From Candidatus Wolfebacteria bacterium GW2011_GWB1_47_1 (GTDB taxonomy: Bacteria > Patescibacteriota > Minisyncoccia > UBA6257 > UBA9933): a DNA stretch of 64,000 bases. Positions 8,569 through 26,981 of the stretch are shown here, piece by piece (position 1 is the first letter of the stretch; every line of letters starts with the position of its first letter). The position numbers and the translations under genes were made by a program. The stretch covers positions 16,983 through 80,982 of the forward strand of contig CP011209.1 of assembly GCA_001029635.1 (NCBI GenBank), given 5' to 3'. The notes under the pieces were generated by a model, which was given only the letters and a program-made list of their open reading frames with translations, was not told the DNA's origin and did not search any database.

Positions 8569-9108
8569 TTACATCGATGAATATTGATCGTCATTAGGAA
8601 TTGGCTGATGTTGCTCCTGAGTTCCTTCAAAAATATCCGCTCCGCCCCCGTAAGGTATATATGCCGATGATACTCGCTCCTCATCCTCCTTTGATCTTTG
8701 AGATGGTGCACTTGGGATTTCCGCAAGTTGCTCCTTGAGCCGCTGGAAAACTTCTTTCGGTGTATTCTTAATATCCCAAAATATAGGCTTTTGCTCCGGC
8801 TTTATCTGAGTTAACTCCTCCGATGTCATAGGTCTACGCCTACCCCACTCATCAAATCCTCGTAATTCGAGCTCTCTAATGACCGCAGGACTACTAAAAA
8901 CCTTATGTGGGGCATCAACAACACTTTCCCTATATCCTGCCTCTCTTAAGGCCTTTGCCTTGCTTTTAAAGCCACCTACTTGCCAGCAATCTAATGCTTT
9001 TATTTGCATTGGGCTTATTTTTCGTACGATCTTCTCCATATCATATATAGTACCACCTTTCGCTAAATATGCCTTTATCGTGTCGCGCTCTGCCCATTTT
9101 CCTACCAT
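8569..9108 (-). CDS. hypothetical protein; HTH segment resembles a phage terminase small subunit
   Basis: 179 aa. The segment W..GGFKSKAKALREAGYRESVVDAPHKVFSSPAVIRELE fits the Terminase_2 HTH pattern (..AIRAGYS......LL..P.V...I). The similarity is inferred and not verified. Confidence 0.5.
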   Translation of the reverse strand: MVGKWAERDTIKAYLAKGGTIYDMEKIVRKISPMQIKALDCWQVGGFKSKAKALREAGYRESVVDAPHKVFSSPAVIRELELRGFDEWGRRRPMTSEELTQIKPEQKPIFWDIKNTPKEVFQRLKEQLAEIPSAPSQRSKEDEERVSSAYIPYGGGADIFEGTQEQHQPIPNDDQYSSM

Positions 9109-10701: not shown

Positions 10702-11038
10702 TATGGTGATTATTTGCTTACTATTACCGTTAATTTATTCCGGACGTGGGTAAACAAAAAACCCACCACCAGATAGGCCTTACGGCCATATGCAAGTTTC
10801 CCTGCATAACGCAACAAGCGATCCTGATGATGGGATCTTTAAGCTTGTTGCGATTTTGCACCATACCTATCGCCGAGGCGGTAGGGTTAGGCACTTGCCC
10901 TTGCGGGCTCTATTCGGTTGTTAGCTTGATTATACGGCAAAAAATACGCTTTGGGTATGTTTATAACTTTTTACACTAAACCTGCCTCTATTGGGCTTAT
11001 TTTGCCCGTACATAGGTATTGGAATAAAAAGAGGGCCA

Positions 11039-20179: not shown

Positions 20180-21004
20180 TTATTTATTCAAGATGTAGTA
20201 ATTTTCCATCAACTTTGCGATCAATATCGGGCCCGTTCCTCCGGGAGTTGGCGTGTAGAATGCATGAGGCACCAGAGATGCGGAATGAGGAATAAGAGCG
20301 TTATCGAAATCACCTTGGATCTTTCCTTCACTATCAAATGAATATCCAAAGTCTACGACACTTGCGAAATCCCTTATCATCTCCGGCGTAATGAGTCCCG
20401 CCTTGCCAACGCCGGTGATGATTATGTCCGCCCGTTTAAGTATTTCCAGGTCGCTCCCCTGGTCGAGTGCGTATACTTCCTTCGCCTTTTTCATCAACCA
20501 AAGCGCGATTGGCTTCCCTACTAATATGCCCAACCCCACAACTGCAACTTTTTTCTCGCGAAGGTCTATTCCCTTTCTTATGAACAATTCTTCGCACGTT
20601 GCCACCGATGGCGGCGCCACCGAACTCCTATTGTTATAGAATGCGCCGAGTGTCCGTTCGCTTAATGCATCCACATCCTTCTCTGGTGGGATCATATTTA
20701 AGACATAGTGCGCATTGCAATGCGCGGGCAGGGGTAGTTGCACTATTATTGCGCCGACGCGAGACATCCTAGCGATCCTCCCTATCTCTTTGCGTAATGA
20801 ATCGTTTGTACTTGTTTCCGGAAATCGATAGATGCGAAAGTCGAGACCCAACTCCTTGGCCACTTTTTCCTTCTGCTTCACAAAACTCTCGCTCGCCGCG
20901 TTGTCGCCGACCAAAACAGCCGCAAATATCTTGTGCGGTGCTGGCTCGCTCTTGAGTCGTTCAATTATTTCTTTCGCAATCCCCTTTCCGTCGATCGCCT
21001 TCAT
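20180..21004 (-). CDS. folD: bifunctional methylenetetrahydrofolate dehydrogenase/cyclohydrolase
   Basis: 274 aa with a typical FolD sequence (VLVGDNAASESFVKQKEK..., VVGLGILVGKPIALWL). Confidence 0.95.
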   Translation of the reverse strand: MKAIDGKGIAKEIIERLKSEPAPHKIFAAVLVGDNAASESFVKQKEKVAKELGLDFRIYRFPETSTNDSLRKEIGRIARMSRVGAIIVQLPLPAHCNAHYVLNMIPPEKDVDALSERTLGAFYNNRSSVAPPSVATCEELFIRKGIDLREKKVAVVGLGILVGKPIALWLMKKAKEVYALDQGSDLEILKRADIIITGVGKAGLITPEMIRDFASVVDFGYSFDSEGKIQGDFDNALIPHSASLVPHAFYTPTPGGTGPILIAKLMENYYILNK

Positions 21005-21110
21005 TACTGTATTGTATCAGATTTTATTCTTCTTACTATATAACGACGCTAAGCGTGGCTTGTTTCCGTATTAGTATTCCTTGATTCCCATCATTATTAT
21101 TCATAAGCCA

Positions 21111-21154
21111 TTGACATGATCACTTTAAACTAGTATTCAATAATCAGCTATTAT
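21111..21154 (+). promoter_or_regulatory. promoter and palindromic operator of paralog cassette 1
   Basis: TTGACA-N17-TATTCA followed directly by ATAATCAGCTATTAT. GAGGAGG SD 5-6 nt before the ATG at 21176. Confidence 0.6.
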
Positions 21155-21175
21155 CACCTGTTTTGAGGAGGCTCT

Positions 21176-21553
21176 ATGTTTAGCAAACTACGAGTGGATC
21201 CACACAAGAAATGCTTGGTCAACCTACCGGAAGGATGGGTCACGTTGTTCCTAGCAAGAACCCGCGAAAGTGCATTCCTTTTCGGAGCCGTTATTGGTCT
21301 CCGGGATAAATGCCTCCCGACAGACGAGGGCATACAACGCGAAATAGGAGGATTCGCTAAAGTTCTCCAGTTCACTGTGGAAAATATCCACGTCCTCGAT
21401 GTTTATCATGGTCATAAATACCCTCAAGGTGGAGGCCTGGTTGACGTTAACCTTCTAGACAAATCTGTGATCTGGGCAGGCGTAGACGAATGCGGGCGCA
21501 ACGAATTCTTCGGCGAACGCATTCCGCTTGCTGACGTTCTCGTTACCCTCTAA
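21176..21553 (+). CDS. hypothetical protein, member 1 of a tandem three-paralog family
   Basis: 125 aa. Shares GLP.GWVTLFLA, CLP, HGHKY..GGG and W...DECG...FGERI.P.DVLV.L with the two downstream paralogs. Confidence 0.65.
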   Translation: MFSKLRVDPHKKCLVNLPEGWVTLFLARTRESAFLFGAVIGLRDKCLPTDEGIQREIGGFAKVLQFTVENIHVLDVYHGHKYPQGGGLVDVNLLDKSVIWAGVDECGRNEFFGERIPLADVLVTL

Positions 21554-21572
21554 GCACTTCTCCGTTTCATCT

Positions 21573-21602
21573 GGAGCCCTCCTTCTCGGAGGGCTTTTTT
21601 TA
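21573..21602 (+). terminator. terminator of paralog 1
   Basis: GAGCCCTCC-TTCT-CGGAGGGCT followed by TTTTTTT, which runs directly into the next TTGACA. Confidence 0.8.
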
Positions 21603-21603
21603 T

Positions 21604-21647
21604 TGACATGCATTCGATAACTTGGTATTCAATAATCAGCTGTTATC
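21604..21647 (+). promoter_or_regulatory. promoter and palindromic operator of paralog cassette 2
   Basis: TTGACA-N17-TATTCA then ATAATCAGCTGTTAT. GGGGAG SD before the ATG at 21669. Confidence 0.6.
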
Positions 21648-21668
21648 AAACGTTTACGGGGAGACTTT

Positions 21669-22037
21669 ATGAACTTGCGCATCGTCAATGATACTATCGT
21701 CGGATTGCCTGACGGCAATACTGTTTTCTTCCTCGCCAAGGCGAACCTACACGGGGTTATCTACTGCTACGCCATATTCGGTCCCACCGCCACCTGTCTT
21801 CCAAAACCGGGAGAAACCTTTACCGAGCTGTTCGACGCAAAGGTTGCCGTCTTTCGCACCGATGGCAGCATGTACGCATTGTACTACGCACATCATGGGC
21901 ACAAATACGCCCTTGGTGGCGGTATGGTCGAGATTATCTCCGGCCGTTCCATCGTCTGGACCACTCCTGATGAATGCGGCTGTACGCGAATCTTCGGCGA
22001 GCGCATCCACCCTCGCGATATCCTTATCGCACTCTAG
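21669..22037 (+). CDS. hypothetical protein, paralog 2
   Basis: 122 aa with the same conserved blocks (FFLAKA, CLP, HHGHKY.LGGGM, TPDECG..RIFGERIHPRDILIAL). Confidence 0.65.
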   Translation: MNLRIVNDTIVGLPDGNTVFFLAKANLHGVIYCYAIFGPTATCLPKPGETFTELFDAKVAVFRTDGSMYALYYAHHGHKYALGGGMVEIISGRSIVWTTPDECGCTRIFGERIHPRDILIAL

Positions 22038-22040
22038 CTC

Positions 22041-22069
22041 AAAGCCCCGCGTATGCGGGGCTTTTTTGT
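22041..22069 (+). terminator. terminator of paralog 2
   Basis: AGCCCCGC-GTAT-GCGGGGCT followed by TTTTTTG. Confidence 0.8.
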
Positions 22070-22112
22070 TGACATCGTTTTTATAATCTGGTATTCAATA
22101 ATCAGCTATTAT
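22069..22112 (+). promoter_or_regulatory. promoter and palindromic operator of paralog cassette 3
   Basis: TTGACA-N17-TATTCA then ATAATCAGCTATTAT. GAGGAGG SD before the ATG at 22134. Confidence 0.6.
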
Positions 22113-22133
22113 AAAACGCTTTGAGGAGGGTAT

Positions 22134-22514
22134 ATGTTTAAGCACCTACGCGTAAACGAACAAACAAAGTGTATCGATGGCTTGCCGAAAGAATGGGTTA
22201 CTCTTTTCCTGGCAAAGGTCTCGGCTCGGTATGGTTTGCTCACCCATTGCGCCGTCATATGCCCCGACGTACTCCTCCCTGAAAAGAATCAGTTTTACTC
22301 CTCGATCGTAGGTGCTAAAGTCGTCCTATTTAACGGAAGAGCATTCAACTTGATCGACATCATCGAAGGATACAAGGTTCGGAAAGGCGGATGCCGCGTT
22401 CAGTATATAAAGAAAGGCCTCGTCGACTTTCCAGGAGAAATCCATAGTTATGACGGGGAGCATACCTTCGAAGATCGTCTTCTTCGCCCACAGGATGTTC
22501 TTGTCGCACTTTAA
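22134..22514 (+). CDS. hypothetical protein, paralog 3
   Basis: 126 aa. The most diverged copy (GLPKEWVTLFLAK retained, GHKY replaced by EGYKVRKGG), ending in QDVLVAL. Confidence 0.6.
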   Translation: MFKHLRVNEQTKCIDGLPKEWVTLFLAKVSARYGLLTHCAVICPDVLLPEKNQFYSSIVGAKVVLFNGRAFNLIDIIEGYKVRKGGCRVQYIKKGLVDFPGEIHSYDGEHTFEDRLLRPQDVLVAL

Positions 22515-22535
22515 TCTCCTCCCCGTTTCACCCAA

Positions 22536-22562
22536 AAGCCCCGCTTGCGCGGGGCCTTTTTG
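22536..22562 (+). terminator. terminator of paralog 3
   Basis: GCCCCGC-TTGC-GCGGGGC followed by CTTTTTG. Confidence 0.75.
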
Positions 22563-22774
22563 CTTCTCTTGATTTAATCTTGCATTTCATCTGCGAGCTG
22601 TAAAAATAGGGGGTTAAATAGGCGAAGAAAATCTCCTCAAAAATAGAGAATCTGGGTCCCGTCCGAAGTATGGGTGATTCTCGATTTTGTTAGAGATTTT
22701 TAAGCCTATTCCCTATTTTTAATTCGCTCGCGCTTTTTGGCCTACTTTTACTAAAAAAGTAGGGAAAAGAAAAG

Positions 22775-24469
22775 TTACATCTGTTCCAATGTTTTCAACC
22801 CAAGCAACTCCAGTCCTGTCTTCAGTGTCTGGGCCGCTGCGGCGATTAGCGCCAAGCGCGCGTTGCGCTCGGCTTCATCGGCCTTCAATATCTGTACCGC
22901 TTGGTACATCGTATTTACATCCTTTGCTAGTACATAGAGATAATCAGACAAGTGATGCGGAAAATAATTTTTTGTTATCCCCTCTATCACCTCTGGAAAT
23001 TCTTGCAATCGCAAAATCACCTGCAATTCCGATTCATCCTTCAGCATATCGACGTTGAATGCCGCTACTTTTTCGCCCTTGCGTAAAATGCTCTTTAATC
23101 GCGCGTAGGCGTATTGCAAATACGGCCCTGAGTTTCCTTCGAAACTCAACATGCGATCCCAATTAAATGCGATGTCGGACTGTCTATTCTGCGACAGGTC
23201 GTTGTATTTTACCGCGCCTAATCCTACTGCCTCGGCTATCTGCTGGCGTTCTTCCTCTGACATGTCGGGTTGTTTTTCATCGACAACTTTTCGTGCCCGA
23301 AGTATAGCCTCCTGCAACAGATCAAAGAGTGATACAGTCTTACCCGCGCGAGTCGAAAACTTCTTCATATCCTCTCCGAGCATTAATCCAAATTTCACAT
23401 GGACCAACGTTTGATCGTCAACGATCTCGAGTTTCTTTGCAGCCTTAAATAGTTGCTCGAAATGCAACGATTGTTCATTACCGACGACATACACGATTCT
23501 ATCCGCATTCAGATCACTAACCCGATGACGCAGCGTTGCGAGGTCCGTGGTCGGATACAGATATGCTCCATCCGACTTCCTGATGATCATCGGCGCTTCG
23601 TATCCCTCGATCGGAATGACGATCGCCCCCTCGCTCTCTTTCGCAATCCCCTTTGTAAGCGCCTCCTCTACGATTCCGGGAAGTTGCTCGTTGTAAAAAC
23701 TTTCACCCTGCACATGATCAAATGATACATTTAATAGCGCGTACATTCGATCGAACTCGGCAAGACTGACATCATAAAACTTCCTCCAAATGGCCAGGTT
23801 CTCTTCATCTCCATCTTGTAACTTTTTTACTTCCTTTCTTGCCACCTCACCTAAGGTCGGATCTTCTTTCATTCGTCCACTAAAGCCGACGTATAACTTC
23901 ATCAAATAATCAATCGTCACCTCCTCTGGCATGCCATCTTCCTTGTATGCCGCGATCAATACGCCGAATTGCTTCCCCCAATCCCCAAGGTGATTATCGC
24001 CAATAGCGTTCCACCCATTGAACTTGAATATATTGTAGAGCGCTTGCCCGATAACAGTCGACCGTAAATGCCCCACCCCCATTGGCTTGGCGATGTTTGG
24101 AGCACTATAATCAACGACCACAGTCTTTAATCGTTCCGCAGCCTCGTGCATAGGACGACCCCAATTTTCCCCTGTTTCGTATATTTCTTTAAAGCTTGCT
24201 TGAATAGCCTCCGCAGTCAACCAGATATTCACAAATCCCGGGCTTACCGCTTCTATTTTTTCGAAGAACCCTTCGGGGGTAGCTGATCGGAGCTTTTCTG
24301 CAATATCCTCGGCAACTTCCATCGGACTCTTACCTCGCGCCTTTGCCAATCGCAACGCGACATTGGTCGAAAAATGTCCGAACTGTGCATGTTCGGGGAT
24401 AGTAATCTCGATAATTTGTGCGTCTGAGATCGCAGACCGCAAATACTCTTCAATATTCTTCCGCATCAT
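22775..24469 (-). CDS. argS: arginine--tRNA ligase
   Basis: 564 aa with an ArgRS N-terminal add-on domain, a class I HIGH-like segment (PNIAKPMGVGHLRST) and a C-terminal DALR anticodon-binding domain ending ...LEQM. Confidence 0.95.
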   Translation of the reverse strand: MMRKNIEEYLRSAISDAQIIEITIPEHAQFGHFSTNVALRLAKARGKSPMEVAEDIAEKLRSATPEGFFEKIEAVSPGFVNIWLTAEAIQASFKEIYETGENWGRPMHEAAERLKTVVVDYSAPNIAKPMGVGHLRSTVIGQALYNIFKFNGWNAIGDNHLGDWGKQFGVLIAAYKEDGMPEEVTIDYLMKLYVGFSGRMKEDPTLGEVARKEVKKLQDGDEENLAIWRKFYDVSLAEFDRMYALLNVSFDHVQGESFYNEQLPGIVEEALTKGIAKESEGAIVIPIEGYEAPMIIRKSDGAYLYPTTDLATLRHRVSDLNADRIVYVVGNEQSLHFEQLFKAAKKLEIVDDQTLVHVKFGLMLGEDMKKFSTRAGKTVSLFDLLQEAILRARKVVDEKQPDMSEEERQQIAEAVGLGAVKYNDLSQNRQSDIAFNWDRMLSFEGNSGPYLQYAYARLKSILRKGEKVAAFNVDMLKDESELQVILRLQEFPEVIEGITKNYFPHHLSDYLYVLAKDVNTMYQAVQILKADEAERNARLALIAAAAQTLKTGLELLGLKTLEQM

Positions 24470-24512: not shown

Positions 24513-25682
24513 TTATTTTGTGGCATTGTACATCACCTCAATCTCATTGCCCGAAAGTGGCCTATTATATACCCGCACATCATCCACCTTCCCGGTTGTC
24601 CAATATGAACCACATCCGTGCGCACCCATGCACAAATTTGCACTTACCGTGTCCGCTCCCGTGATTGCTAACGTCCCATCTAATACGCCGTTTATGTAGA
24701 CCTTTACGCCTGTATTGTCATATACTCCGACAATATGATACCAATTACCCATCGCGAGCGACGTTGCCCCATTTATGCTTTTCTGGGTACCTCCGACCGA
24801 CGCAGAATGGAAAGCCCTATTCCCCGATACATGCGTTGATAAATAAGGCAACCCAAAACTAAGGAATATATTCGCGTTTACCGCAAGTGACCCAGGATTA
24901 AACCACGCCGCCATCGTGTGTCCTTTTGAAAAATCAACGCCCGTACTTACTCCCGGGGCATTCACGGCACTGCTTCCATTAAAGCTTATCGCTCCATCCA
25001 CCTTACCGGCCGTCCACGTAGGCGATCCTATAGAAAGGATTCCATCATGCCCCCTGCCGCTACCGTCAGCTGCAACAGCGCCATTGGTTTCATCAAATGC
25101 CCAGTACCCAACAAGCCCAGACGCTTGCGCCAATAAGGATAAATTCGACCCCTGTTCGAACCGGGAAGGATCAACCCCTCCATCCTTCGCCCCATTTTGA
25201 TTGAAGTATTTATCGGATTCCAAGGTCGCAGACAATGCATATCCGCTTCCGGCAACATATGTATAATACAGTCCTTTTGTTCCGCTATTTGTCGGGTCTA
25301 TTGGCAATGTTCCTTGCGAAGCCCCCAAGCTCGCAATATCCACCGGAAGCCACCCACTTCCATCTGTCTTGAGGTAGTTTGCTGCTGTTTTACACGCATA
25401 GCTCCAAGTCGGAGGCAAGGTTGGAAGGCTCAAGTTTGCACATATCGCAGATGTATCCGGCGTTGAAACATAAACCACGTTCGCCGTCCCCATTGCCATA
25501 TTTCTGTTTTTTGCCTCCGCCAACGAAAGGGATAGTATCTGGATGTCGACGACTCTTTTCCCGTCTCTCGACTGCCTCAGCTGCTCTACTGGATTAATAG
25601 ACAGTACAGCTACGGTTGAGATGATCGCTATAATGCCAATCGAAATCAAAAGTTCCAATAATGTGAATCCGTTCCTACTCAT
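24513..25682 (-). CDS. type IV pilin-like (prepilin N-terminal methylation motif) protein with a LamG/concanavalin-like domain
   Basis: Prepilin leader and cleavage motif MSRNG|FTLLELLISIGIIAII. C-terminal LamG-like jelly-roll (GNWYHIVGVYDNTGVKVYINGVLDG). Start trimmed to M39 of the track ORF. Confidence 0.8.
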   Translation of the reverse strand: MSRNGFTLLELLISIGIIAIISTVAVLSINPVEQLRQSRDGKRVVDIQILSLSLAEAKNRNMAMGTANVVYVSTPDTSAICANLSLPTLPPTWSYACKTAANYLKTDGSGWLPVDIASLGASQGTLPIDPTNSGTKGLYYTYVAGSGYALSATLESDKYFNQNGAKDGGVDPSRFEQGSNLSLLAQASGLVGYWAFDETNGAVAADGSGRGHDGILSIGSPTWTAGKVDGAISFNGSSAVNAPGVSTGVDFSKGHTMAAWFNPGSLAVNANIFLSFGLPYLSTHVSGNRAFHSASVGGTQKSINGATSLAMGNWYHIVGVYDNTGVKVYINGVLDGTLAITGADTVSANLCMGAHGCGSYWTTGKVDDVRVYNRPLSGNEIEVMYNATK

Positions 25683-25824
25683 ATAACCTATTGTACCATA
25701 TCTTCTTCTTATGAAGTGCATAGTAAGACCCCTCGTACCAAAACAAATATTGACAATATTTATATTATATGATATAAATATATCAGATTCTTTCACTCTT
25801 CAGTAGTTAAAAAAGGAGACTTTT

Positions 25825-26195: not shown

Positions 26196-26633
26196 ATGGA
26201 GGCCATAACCAACAAACGTGCCTATTTTGACTATGAGATCCTCGAAACCTTCGAGGCGGGCTTGGAATTGCTCGGAACGGAGGTGAAATCGGTCAAGGGT
26301 GGACGTATAAACCTTTCGAGCACCTATGTACTCCTCCGGGACGGCCAGCCAACCCTTTTTAATGCCGATATCCCACCCTATCAACCCAAGAATGCGCCTA
26401 AAGATTACAACCCCACTCGCACCCGTCGGCTCTTACTTACAGCCAAAGAAATCCAGTATTTAACAGGCAAAATCGAGGAGCGAGGGTTGACATTAGTGCC
26501 TTTGAAAGTATATACTAAGCATCAGCGAATTAAGGTTCTCGTCGGTCTCGCAAAGAGCCGAAAGGAACACGACAAGCGCGAAGCCATCAAAAAGCGTGAA
26601 GATTGGAAGCAAATCCGCAAGGATATCTTCTAA
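26196..26633 (+). CDS. smpB: SsrA-binding protein
   Basis: Starts at M16 of the track ORF (MEAITNKRAYFDYEILETFEAGLELLGTEVKS...), a canonical SmpB sequence. Confidence 0.95.
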   Translation: MEAITNKRAYFDYEILETFEAGLELLGTEVKSVKGGRINLSSTYVLLRDGQPTLFNADIPPYQPKNAPKDYNPTRTRRLLLTAKEIQYLTGKIEERGLTLVPLKVYTKHQRIKVLVGLAKSRKEHDKREAIKKREDWKQIRKDIF

Positions 26634-26639
26634 CCCATG

Positions 26640-26981
26640 GGGATGGCAGGCTTTGACAAAAGCGGCTCGTTGAAAAACTGCAGACCGGTCGTCATACCGC
26701 AACCTGACAAAAACCAATAACTGCCAACAAAACAGCAGTTCCTGCATTCGCTTTCGCGTAATGCAGTGTCGCCCCACCCTAAGCTTGTACGGTGGACGCG
26801 GCATCAACCCACAAGCTGGTTCAGTATCCGTGCCGTAGGCGCCTGAACGAGATTCAAATCGGCAAACTCAGTGGCGATTCGTCGGATTTTCTGCTTCTGT
26901 TTTACACTAACCCGACTATGTCTGTAGACGTCTTTCAATAACTCTTTTGGACGGGAGTTCAATTCTCCTCATCTCCACCAT
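26640..26981 (+). ncRNA. ssrA: tmRNA (SsrA)
   Basis: Lies immediately 3' of smpB. 5' GGGGATG pairs with 3' CATCTCC-ACCA, giving a 7 bp acceptor stem with a G3:U70 wobble (Ala identity) plus an encoded CCA. T-arm GGGAG-TTCAATT-CTCCT. Internal tag ORF GCC AAC AAA ACA GCA GTT CCT GCA TTC GCT TTC GCG TAA encodes ANKTAVPAFAFA* (~26724-26762). Confidence 0.75.

Follow-up and report, generated by a model that had tools for sequence, protein, structure and literature searches.

The genomes of bacteria of the candidate phyla radiation (CPR), Wolfebacteria among them, measure about 1 Mb and contain many unannotated genes. The locus described here is a tandem array of three small genes, each in its own cassette of regulatory DNA, within a 64,000-nucleotide stretch (the window) of the genome of Candidatus Wolfebacteria bacterium GW2011_GWB1_47_1 (contig CP011209.1, positions 16,983 to 80,982 of the forward strand). 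Two kinds of system come closest to its control regions. One is the paralog regulon under operator control, which the array resembles in that a near-palindrome covers positions -6 to +9 in all three window promoters. The other is the housekeeping sigma-70-type promoter, for which a conserved 3-bp "start" element and AT-rich discriminators have been described in Terrabacteria (Kuo et al., NAR 2025, PMC12641261). Like such promoters, the cassettes carry TTGACA, a 17-bp spacer, a TG one base before the -10, a 6-nt A/T-rich discriminator and a Y-R-R triplet (CAG) at the predicted start, a layout shared by the clpP, tmRNA and SDR promoters of the same genome. Unlike them, the cassettes have A and not T as the last base of the -10 (TATTCA, TATTTA, TATTAA), are almost invariant from -15 to +10 among paralogs and show additional conservation from +3 to +19. 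On balance, the locus is probably an old tandem array of monocistronic units that encode a lineage-restricted protein family and are driven by near-consensus housekeeping promoters under purifying selection.

The three genes are open reading frames (ORFs) on the plus strand that encode proteins of 125, 122 and 126 amino acids (aa) with pairwise identities of 30-36%. The first-pass annotation had described three tandem, diverged paralogs, each with its own promoter, Shine-Dalgarno (SD) sequence and terminator, and all of these elements are present:

20180-21004, minus strand: folD, the left flank, divergent from cassette 1; its orthologues have THF_DHG_CYH Pfam domains.
21111-21139, plus strand: core promoter of cassette 1, with TTGACA at 21111-21116, a 17-nt spacer and TATTCA at 21134-21139.
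21140-21175, plus strand: cassette 1 discriminator ATAATC, predicted start A21146 (in CAG), leader beginning AGCTATTATCACC and SD GAGGAGG.
21176-21553, plus strand: paralog 1, 125 aa, "A type", with HGHKY..GGG and DECG.
21573-21602, plus strand: terminator 1, with its stem at 21573-21597 (-17.4 kcal/mol, z -3.5); the T-run touches promoter 2.
21603-21631, plus strand: core promoter of cassette 2, with TTGACA at 21603, a 17-nt spacer, TG before the -10 and TATTCA.
21632-21668, plus strand: cassette 2 discriminator, predicted start A21638, leader AGCTGTTATCAAACGTTT and SD GGGGAG.
21669-22037, plus strand: paralog 2, 122 aa, "B type", with HGHKY..GGG and DECG.
22041-22068, plus strand: terminator 2, with its stem at 22041-22064 (-19 kcal/mol, z -4.9); it touches promoter 3.
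22069-22097, plus strand: core promoter of cassette 3, with TTGACA at 22069, a 17-nt spacer, TG before the -10 and TATTCA.
22098-22133, plus strand: cassette 3 discriminator, predicted start A22104, leader AGCTATTATAAAACGC and SD GAGGAGG.
22134-22514, plus strand: paralog 3, 126 aa, "C type", which has lost HGH and DECG and reads EGYKVRKGGC.
22538-22562, plus strand: terminator 3, with its stem at 22538-22555 (-17.1 kcal/mol, z -2.4).
22775-24469, minus strand: argS, the right flank; its orthologues have arginyl-tRNA synthetase Pfam domains.

The SD sequence lies 4-5 nt from the ATG in all three cassettes. Each terminator consists of a 7-10 bp, G+C-rich stem followed directly by a U-run (T5-T7 in the DNA), the arrangement of an intrinsic terminator, with folding energies of -17 to -19 kcal/mol and z scores of -2.4 to -4.9. 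The T-runs of terminators 1 and 2 lead directly into the next TTGACA. The sequence architecture thus bears out three separate promoter-to-terminator units. Transcription is predicted to start at the A of the CAG, and each copy would be transcribed separately and strongly, with high expression as the likely outcome.

Cassettes of the same family are present on related contigs, which are arranged as follows:

L001-L005 (GWE2_44_13 type): folD, three cassettes, argS.
L006 and L007: folD, two cassettes, argS.
L008: folD, one extra gene, three cassettes; the contig ends before argS.
L018: folD, one family gene; the contig ends before argS.
L016: three cassettes on a contig without flanking genes.

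A narrower alignment search for related loci returned a single GTDB species genome. All relatives' cassettes that were examined have a TTGAC-type -35 and an SD sequence, and an intrinsic terminator where the contig extends far enough; most also have a TG-extended -10 and an AGCT start, the exceptions being cassettes 1 and 3 of L008 and cassettes 1 and 2 of L016. Wherever a related contig is long enough to tell, family cassettes lie next to folD, and in those that extend to argS (L001-L007) this gene bounds the array on the other side. Copy content and order vary between species, the window reading A, B, C and L001 a divergent type, then C, then A. The best orthologue pairs of the family are 41-56% identical between species, compared with 72-82% for FolD, ArgS and LytR between the same genomes (FolD 72-77%, ArgS 75-77%), which indicates that the family evolves roughly twice as fast as its housekeeping neighbors.

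In each window cassette, TTGACA-N17-TATTCA is followed by ATAATCAGCT(A/G)TTAT (at 21140, 21632 and 22098), and the invariant run GTATTCAATAATCAGCT is common to all three promoter blocks. The 15-mer ATAATCAGCTRTTAT occurs at only three sites in the 64 kb, with no further site even at up to 2 mismatches, whereas 0.28 sites are expected from shuffled sequence and 0 of 100 shuffles reached three. The combination of TTGACA and a 17-bp spacer is found in 3/3 window cassettes and in almost all relatives' cassettes. The -10 hexamer TATTCA has the A at position 2, but it also has A at position 6, so that the canonical T at -7 is missing; other consensus-like promoters of the genome end in A as well (TATAAA, TATACA, TACAAA). 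Of the three window cassettes, two have a TG before the -10, as do 10 of the 11 cassettes that were compared by segment. Mean pairwise identity among these 11 cassettes, which come from several lineages, is 0.97 in the -35, 0.82 in the extended -10 plus -10, 0.82 in the discriminator plus start (-6 to +2), 0.69 from +3 to +11 and 0.32 from +12 to +19, with 0.45 in the 14-nt spacer. Among the window cassettes alone the spacer is 0.48 identical and the blocks on either side of it are 0.93-1.00 identical. Promoter elements (0.82-1.0) are therefore far better conserved than either the spacer or the nucleotides of the coding sequences (about 62%), in agreement with the earlier statement that regulatory DNA is conserved while coding DNA has diverged.

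The left arm and center of the apparent operator (ATAATCAG) match the discriminator and start consensus of unrelated strong promoters, both in the same genome and in relatives. These promoters have an A/T-rich discriminator and (T/A)CAG located 6-8 nt past the -10; CAG stands at a fitting distance past the -10 in all cassettes and in 8-9 unrelated promoters. Four of the unrelated promoters with the same start context are:

clpP promoter: TATACA followed by TTATACAGC.
tmRNA (transfer-messenger RNA) promoter: TATACT followed by AAGCATCAGC.
SDR gene promoter: TATAAA followed by CAAATCAGT.
ORF 25825 promoter: TATAAA followed by TATATCAGA.

Several further promoters in L001 and L006 carry the same discriminator and CAG context. 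The occurrence of this context at unrelated promoters fits the published 3-bp start element (PMC12641261). When a weight matrix was built from unrelated promoters and compared against a background of AG-anchored sites, the -5 to +12 segments of the window cassettes fell in about the top 1% of the background if the promoter of a 196-aa protein gene in L001 was included in the matrix and in about the top 5% if it was left out; the ranking is less clear for some relatives' cassettes. By these comparisons, most of the apparent operator is the ordinary strong promoter of the lineage.

Several observations weigh against so generic a view of the promoter. A strict scan for Escherichia coli-style sigma-70 promoters gave 0 sites here, TATTCA ending in A rather than T. 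The sample of generic promoters is small, consisting of 9 sites aligned by eye on AG, and the matrix fails to explain +3 to +12, for which the window cassettes rank at percentiles of 0.14-0.63. In addition, the unrelated L001 gene for the 196-aa membrane protein carries an exact ATAATCAGCTG at its promoter (12117-12079, minus strand: TTGACA-17-TATAAA-ATAATCAGCTGTTT, identical in L011 and L012). This protein has two transmembrane (TM) helices, its gene lies 7 kb from the array and there is no orthologue in the window; the shared sequence could reflect a common regulator instead of a generic optimum. A generic promoter also leaves the conservation of +3 to +19 unexplained, so that a specific trans-acting factor is possible.

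The family-specific element of the cassettes is a directional, G-poor leader that extends from +3 to about +19, with the consensus AGCURYUAUCA and, in some copies, an additional AACGUUU. The leader of window cassette 2 is identical to those of L008 cassette 2 and L017, an identity that spans 18 nt in three species, and these same leaders precede non-orthologous paralogs (B type in the window, A type in L008 and L017). Within this trio, identity is 1.00 from +3 to +11 and 0.88 from +12 to +19, compared with 0.43 in the promoter spacer. Such identity of the leader across three species, against a spacer that has drifted, argues that the leader is under selection, and the pattern of identity indicates selection on +3 to about +19 beyond what a generic promoter needs.

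The first-pass annotation had proposed a palindromic operator at the start site through which one repressor would control a three-gene regulon. In this reading, ATAATCAGCTRTTAT is the binding site of a single dimeric repressor at the transcription start, and the small regulon comprises the three paralogs with or without other genes. The dyad is indeed present in the window, where the arms of ATAAT-N5-ATTAT, separated by a 5-nt center, show complementarity at 5/5, 4/5 and 5/5 positions; L016 cassette 3 likewise has ATAAT-CAGCA-ATTAT. In many cassettes the center is a perfect 6-bp palindrome: CAGCTG is found in window cassette 2, L008 cassette 2, L001 cassette 1 and L017, and TAGCTA in L001 cassettes 2 and 3 and L006 cassette 2. 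Repressor sites typically span positions such as -6 to +9, and the second L001 gene with ATAATCAGCTG after its -10, together with conservation of +3 to +19 in excess of generic promoter needs, would suit a repressor. However, the left arm and CAG also occur at unrelated promoters, and the right arms in L001 and L006 (GTTTT, ACTCA, ATTCA, ACTAT) are not complementary to the left arms. What is conserved is thus a directional element and not the dyad. The change of the center from C..G to T..A amounts to at most one independent compensatory event. Unlike operator-controlled paralog regulons, the array does not keep its dyad across species, half of that dyad is generic promoter, and no regulator gene is found among the 8 neighboring ORFs that were scanned. 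In a metagenome scan, made on a set without the source genome, the promoter-anchored motif was found only in the GWE2_44_13-type genome and in three unrelated short contigs. Of the proposed operator, then, the window dyad stands and its symmetry in L001 and L006 does not, and the lack of a further motif copy in the 64-kb window and of a regulator among the scanned neighbors weakens the single-repressor regulon, which is rather unlikely. The directional element lies within the predicted transcript, and the leader may instead act as RNA, either as a 5' stability or translation element or as a site for an RNA-binding protein, possibly with autoregulation by the encoded barrel proteins (described below). 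The identity of 18 nt on non-orthologous paralogs in three species is compatible with such a role, as are the leaders' low G content and lack of structure on folding and a C/U-rich motif in the 3' untranslated region (UTR) that contains the SD-complementary CCUCC in 8 of 11 cassettes. On the other hand, no structure or covariation is detectable, an Rfam scan of the region gave sub-threshold chance matches only, the start site is a predicted one and there is no indication that the proteins bind RNA. Pairing of the 5' UTR with the 3' UTR through CCUCC was rejected as not significant overall, the duplex energies being better than those of shuffled sequences in only 3 of 9 cassettes. An RNA function of the leader is accordingly judged improbable.

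Two further explanations concern the origin of the array instead of its control. The annotation had attributed the near-identity of the promoter blocks to strong selection or gene conversion. Recent conversion between cassettes would leave identical blocks within a genome without functional selection, and 17 invariant nt are in fact common to the three window cassettes, L001 cassettes 2 and 3 share TTGACACTTCATTTATA and TAGCTACTCACAA, and one leader is found on different protein subtypes in different species. A conversion tract would, however, also homogenize the 14-nt spacer between the blocks, and this drifted spacer between invariant blocks points to purifying selection instead of recent conversion. 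The blocks are also kept across species by array position, window cassette 2 being like L008 cassette 2 and window cassette 3 matching L008 cassette 3 at the -35 junction, and the same blocks are found in all lineages while the spacers have drifted. Selection is thus the part of that claim that holds, and conversion is very unlikely. The cassettes had also been likened to an inserted module between folD and argS, which would make them a horizontally acquired or mobile element of defense, immunity or phage origin. They do lie on the strand opposite to both neighbors, their proteins evolve fast and their copy content is variable, and a distant member of the family, P0036, is located in a region rich in small ORFs beside a DUF87-like ATPase gene. 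The conserved position beside folD in related lineages, with argS at the far end where the contig extends to it, nevertheless contradicts insertion, as does a G+C content of 0.44-0.51, which equals that of the surroundings. No flanking repeats are present except the cassette repeats themselves, there is no toxin or integrase gene nearby, PADLOC and PHROG gave no match, and no relatives of the family were found in IMG/VR viral contigs or in phage or plasmid collections. A mobile origin looks refuted by synteny and is extremely improbable.

Some details of the relatives are worth recording. A strain variant of the region (L015, corresponding to window 22024-22877) has 3 differences in 854 nt, all within the coding sequence of paralog 3 and none in non-coding DNA; one is synonymous and the others are D98A and H110Q, too few for a ratio of nonsynonymous to synonymous rates (dN/dS). 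The 140-aa gene called in L018 (5001-5423) is given too early a start: its first 15 codons overlie promoter and leader sequence that is conserved (TGGTTCTTAATATTCAGCT...AGGAGG), and an internal ATG is the real start. The distant member P0036 (L019, 3080-3840) has 156 aa with a duplicated N-terminal segment; its gene follows a DUF87/ResIII-like ATPase gene and precedes many small ORFs, with repeated AAATTTCGCATTTGCGAAAT palindromes on the flanks. A motif CTCC(C)GTTT.A.CC lies between stop codon and terminator at window positions 21554-21572 and 22515-22537 and recurs in L001, L006 and L008.

Paralogs 1 and 2 are identical to the hypothetical proteins UY31_C0006G0021 and UY31_C0006G0022 of Candidatus Wolfebacteria bacterium GW2011_GWE1_48_7. 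The family is rare, with 9 clusters among 5.8 billion proteins, and an exhaustive profile search of 1.84 billion proteins returned 58 representatives at E <= 1e-3, nearly all of 112-146 aa; a second, word-indexed protein search with 29 sequences added little. Giant HYR-repeat proteins were dismissed as spurious relatives because they match only profile positions of about 97-120, many times over. No family copy beyond these three was found in the window. As the annotation had noted, the family is not one that can be named: scans of the three proteins against Pfam, PHROGs, NCBIfam and PADLOC gave nothing usable, and a Pfam scan of 29 family members gave no match. From the searches, the family is restricted almost entirely to the Wolfebacteria lineage (CPR, Parcubacteria). 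Its core motif is V-x-HGHKY-x-x-GGG-x-V-E, in which HGH and GGG are invariant even in a distant subfamily; HGHKY..GGG and W..DECG are kept in paralogs 1 and 2, and both are lost in paralog 3. This loss weakens the annotation's suggestion that conserved His and Cys residues form a metal or cofactor site. The proteins have no signal peptide. Two distant members have instead an N-terminal anchor of two TM helices, which, by the positive-inside rule, would place the domain in the cytoplasm.

AlphaFold2 models are all-beta for both paralog 1 (predicted local distance difference test score, pLDDT, 87.9; predicted template modeling score, pTM, 0.86) and the most divergent copy, paralog 3 (pLDDT 80.4, pTM 0.77). 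In these models the family appears to fold as a small up-and-down beta-barrel common to the paralogs. A Foldseek search of the PDB gave no match with E below 0.29. The barrel resembles avidin/lipocalin (calycin-like) barrels, the erythrocruorin linker barrel (4u8u) and DUF1842 (8t0b) in fold class only. Compared with avidin/lipocalin-type barrels, sequence identity is 5-10%, there is no Pfam, NCBIfam or PDB sequence link, and the HGHKYxxGGG and W..DECG motifs are foreign to those families. Membership in the avidin/lipocalin families by sequence was rejected, as none of the 29 members matched a Pfam or NCBIfam profile. Weak matches to Rieske-type [2Fe-2S] ferredoxins appeared in two libraries (BphF 1fqt and AndAb NF041683; E 0.17 and 0.18) and align the VAxF-hairpin, the xHG segment and the C-terminal strand. 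The Rieske assignment (PF00355) was also rejected: the cluster ligands (C-x-H and C-x-x-H) are absent, with no conservation of the first Cys and a gap in the family at the second motif, a profile-profile test failed (21%) and the Pfam Rieske models gave no match.

In the favored account of an old array of housekeeping-type units, each unit would be complete and monocistronic from promoter to terminator, at a fixed position beside folD. The conserved blocks would be mainly the core promoter for the housekeeping sigma factor (TTGACA, 17-bp spacer, TG-extended TATTnA, AT-rich discriminator and CAG), with the strong SD and the intrinsic terminator completing the unit. The promoter pieces would be fixed by purifying selection that favors strong expression of every copy separately and leaves the spacer and coding sequence free to drift, and the leader would contribute a control or efficiency function specific to the family. 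Putatively, the proteins are abundant in the cytoplasm and bind a small ligand or metal through the HGHKYxxGGG strand-turn, with the motif-less paralogs serving as diverged partners. It is a more speculative and doubtful proposal that the cassettes form a Wolfebacteria-specific co-regulated set in which the leader AGCUGUUAUCAAACGUUU is a dedicated cis-element, whether DNA operator or RNA leader and possibly bound by the barrel proteins, that tunes HGHKYxxGGG barrels for the capture of a metal or host-derived metabolite needed by reduced-genome episymbionts.

That two or three near-consensus units, each with its own signals, are kept at a syntenic core site while the proteins diverge fast makes the array a good candidate for an abundant, lineage-defining function. 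The array is also a clean natural data set for the strong promoter of an uncultured CPR lineage, and it illustrates that the core-promoter consensus of a lineage can account for much of what looks like an operator. Should the leader or the HGH motif prove functional, the locus would represent a new small regulon or ligand-binding family; if neither does, it would be an ordinary paralog array. Experiments would best be aimed at the leader and at the HGHKYxxGGG motif.

Several features of the surrounding DNA were recorded alongside the array. Upstream of folD, on the minus strand, an extended -10 (TGATACAAT, 21005-21030) ends 6 nt before the ATG and no SD is present, which suggests that the folD mRNA is leaderless; the same arrangement occurs in L001, L006 and L018. 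The gap that separates terminator 3 from the 3' end of argS contains an imperfect, roughly 140-nt hairpin (22592-22732) with a minimum free energy of -69 kcal/mol on the plus strand and -65 on the minus strand (z -5.6 and -7.0). The matching gap in L001, L006 and L008 lacks this hairpin, and the window has no second copy of it; it could be a small RNA, a remnant resembling a miniature inverted-repeat transposable element or a long terminator. Directly after argS lies a gene (24513-25796, minus strand) for a type IV pilin-like protein with an N-terminal methylation motif and a Laminin_G_3/LamG domain, in place of the small gene and smpB found after argS in relatives. The tmRNA gene is located at 26639-26980 (tag ANKTAVPAFAFA), and its consensus TTGACA-18-TATACT promoter (26487-26516) is embedded in the 3' end of smpB; L001 has this promoter too, at 8873. 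Finally, window positions 10775-10893 (minus strand) match the LOOT RNA of Rfam above the gathering score (77 bits, E 1e-12).

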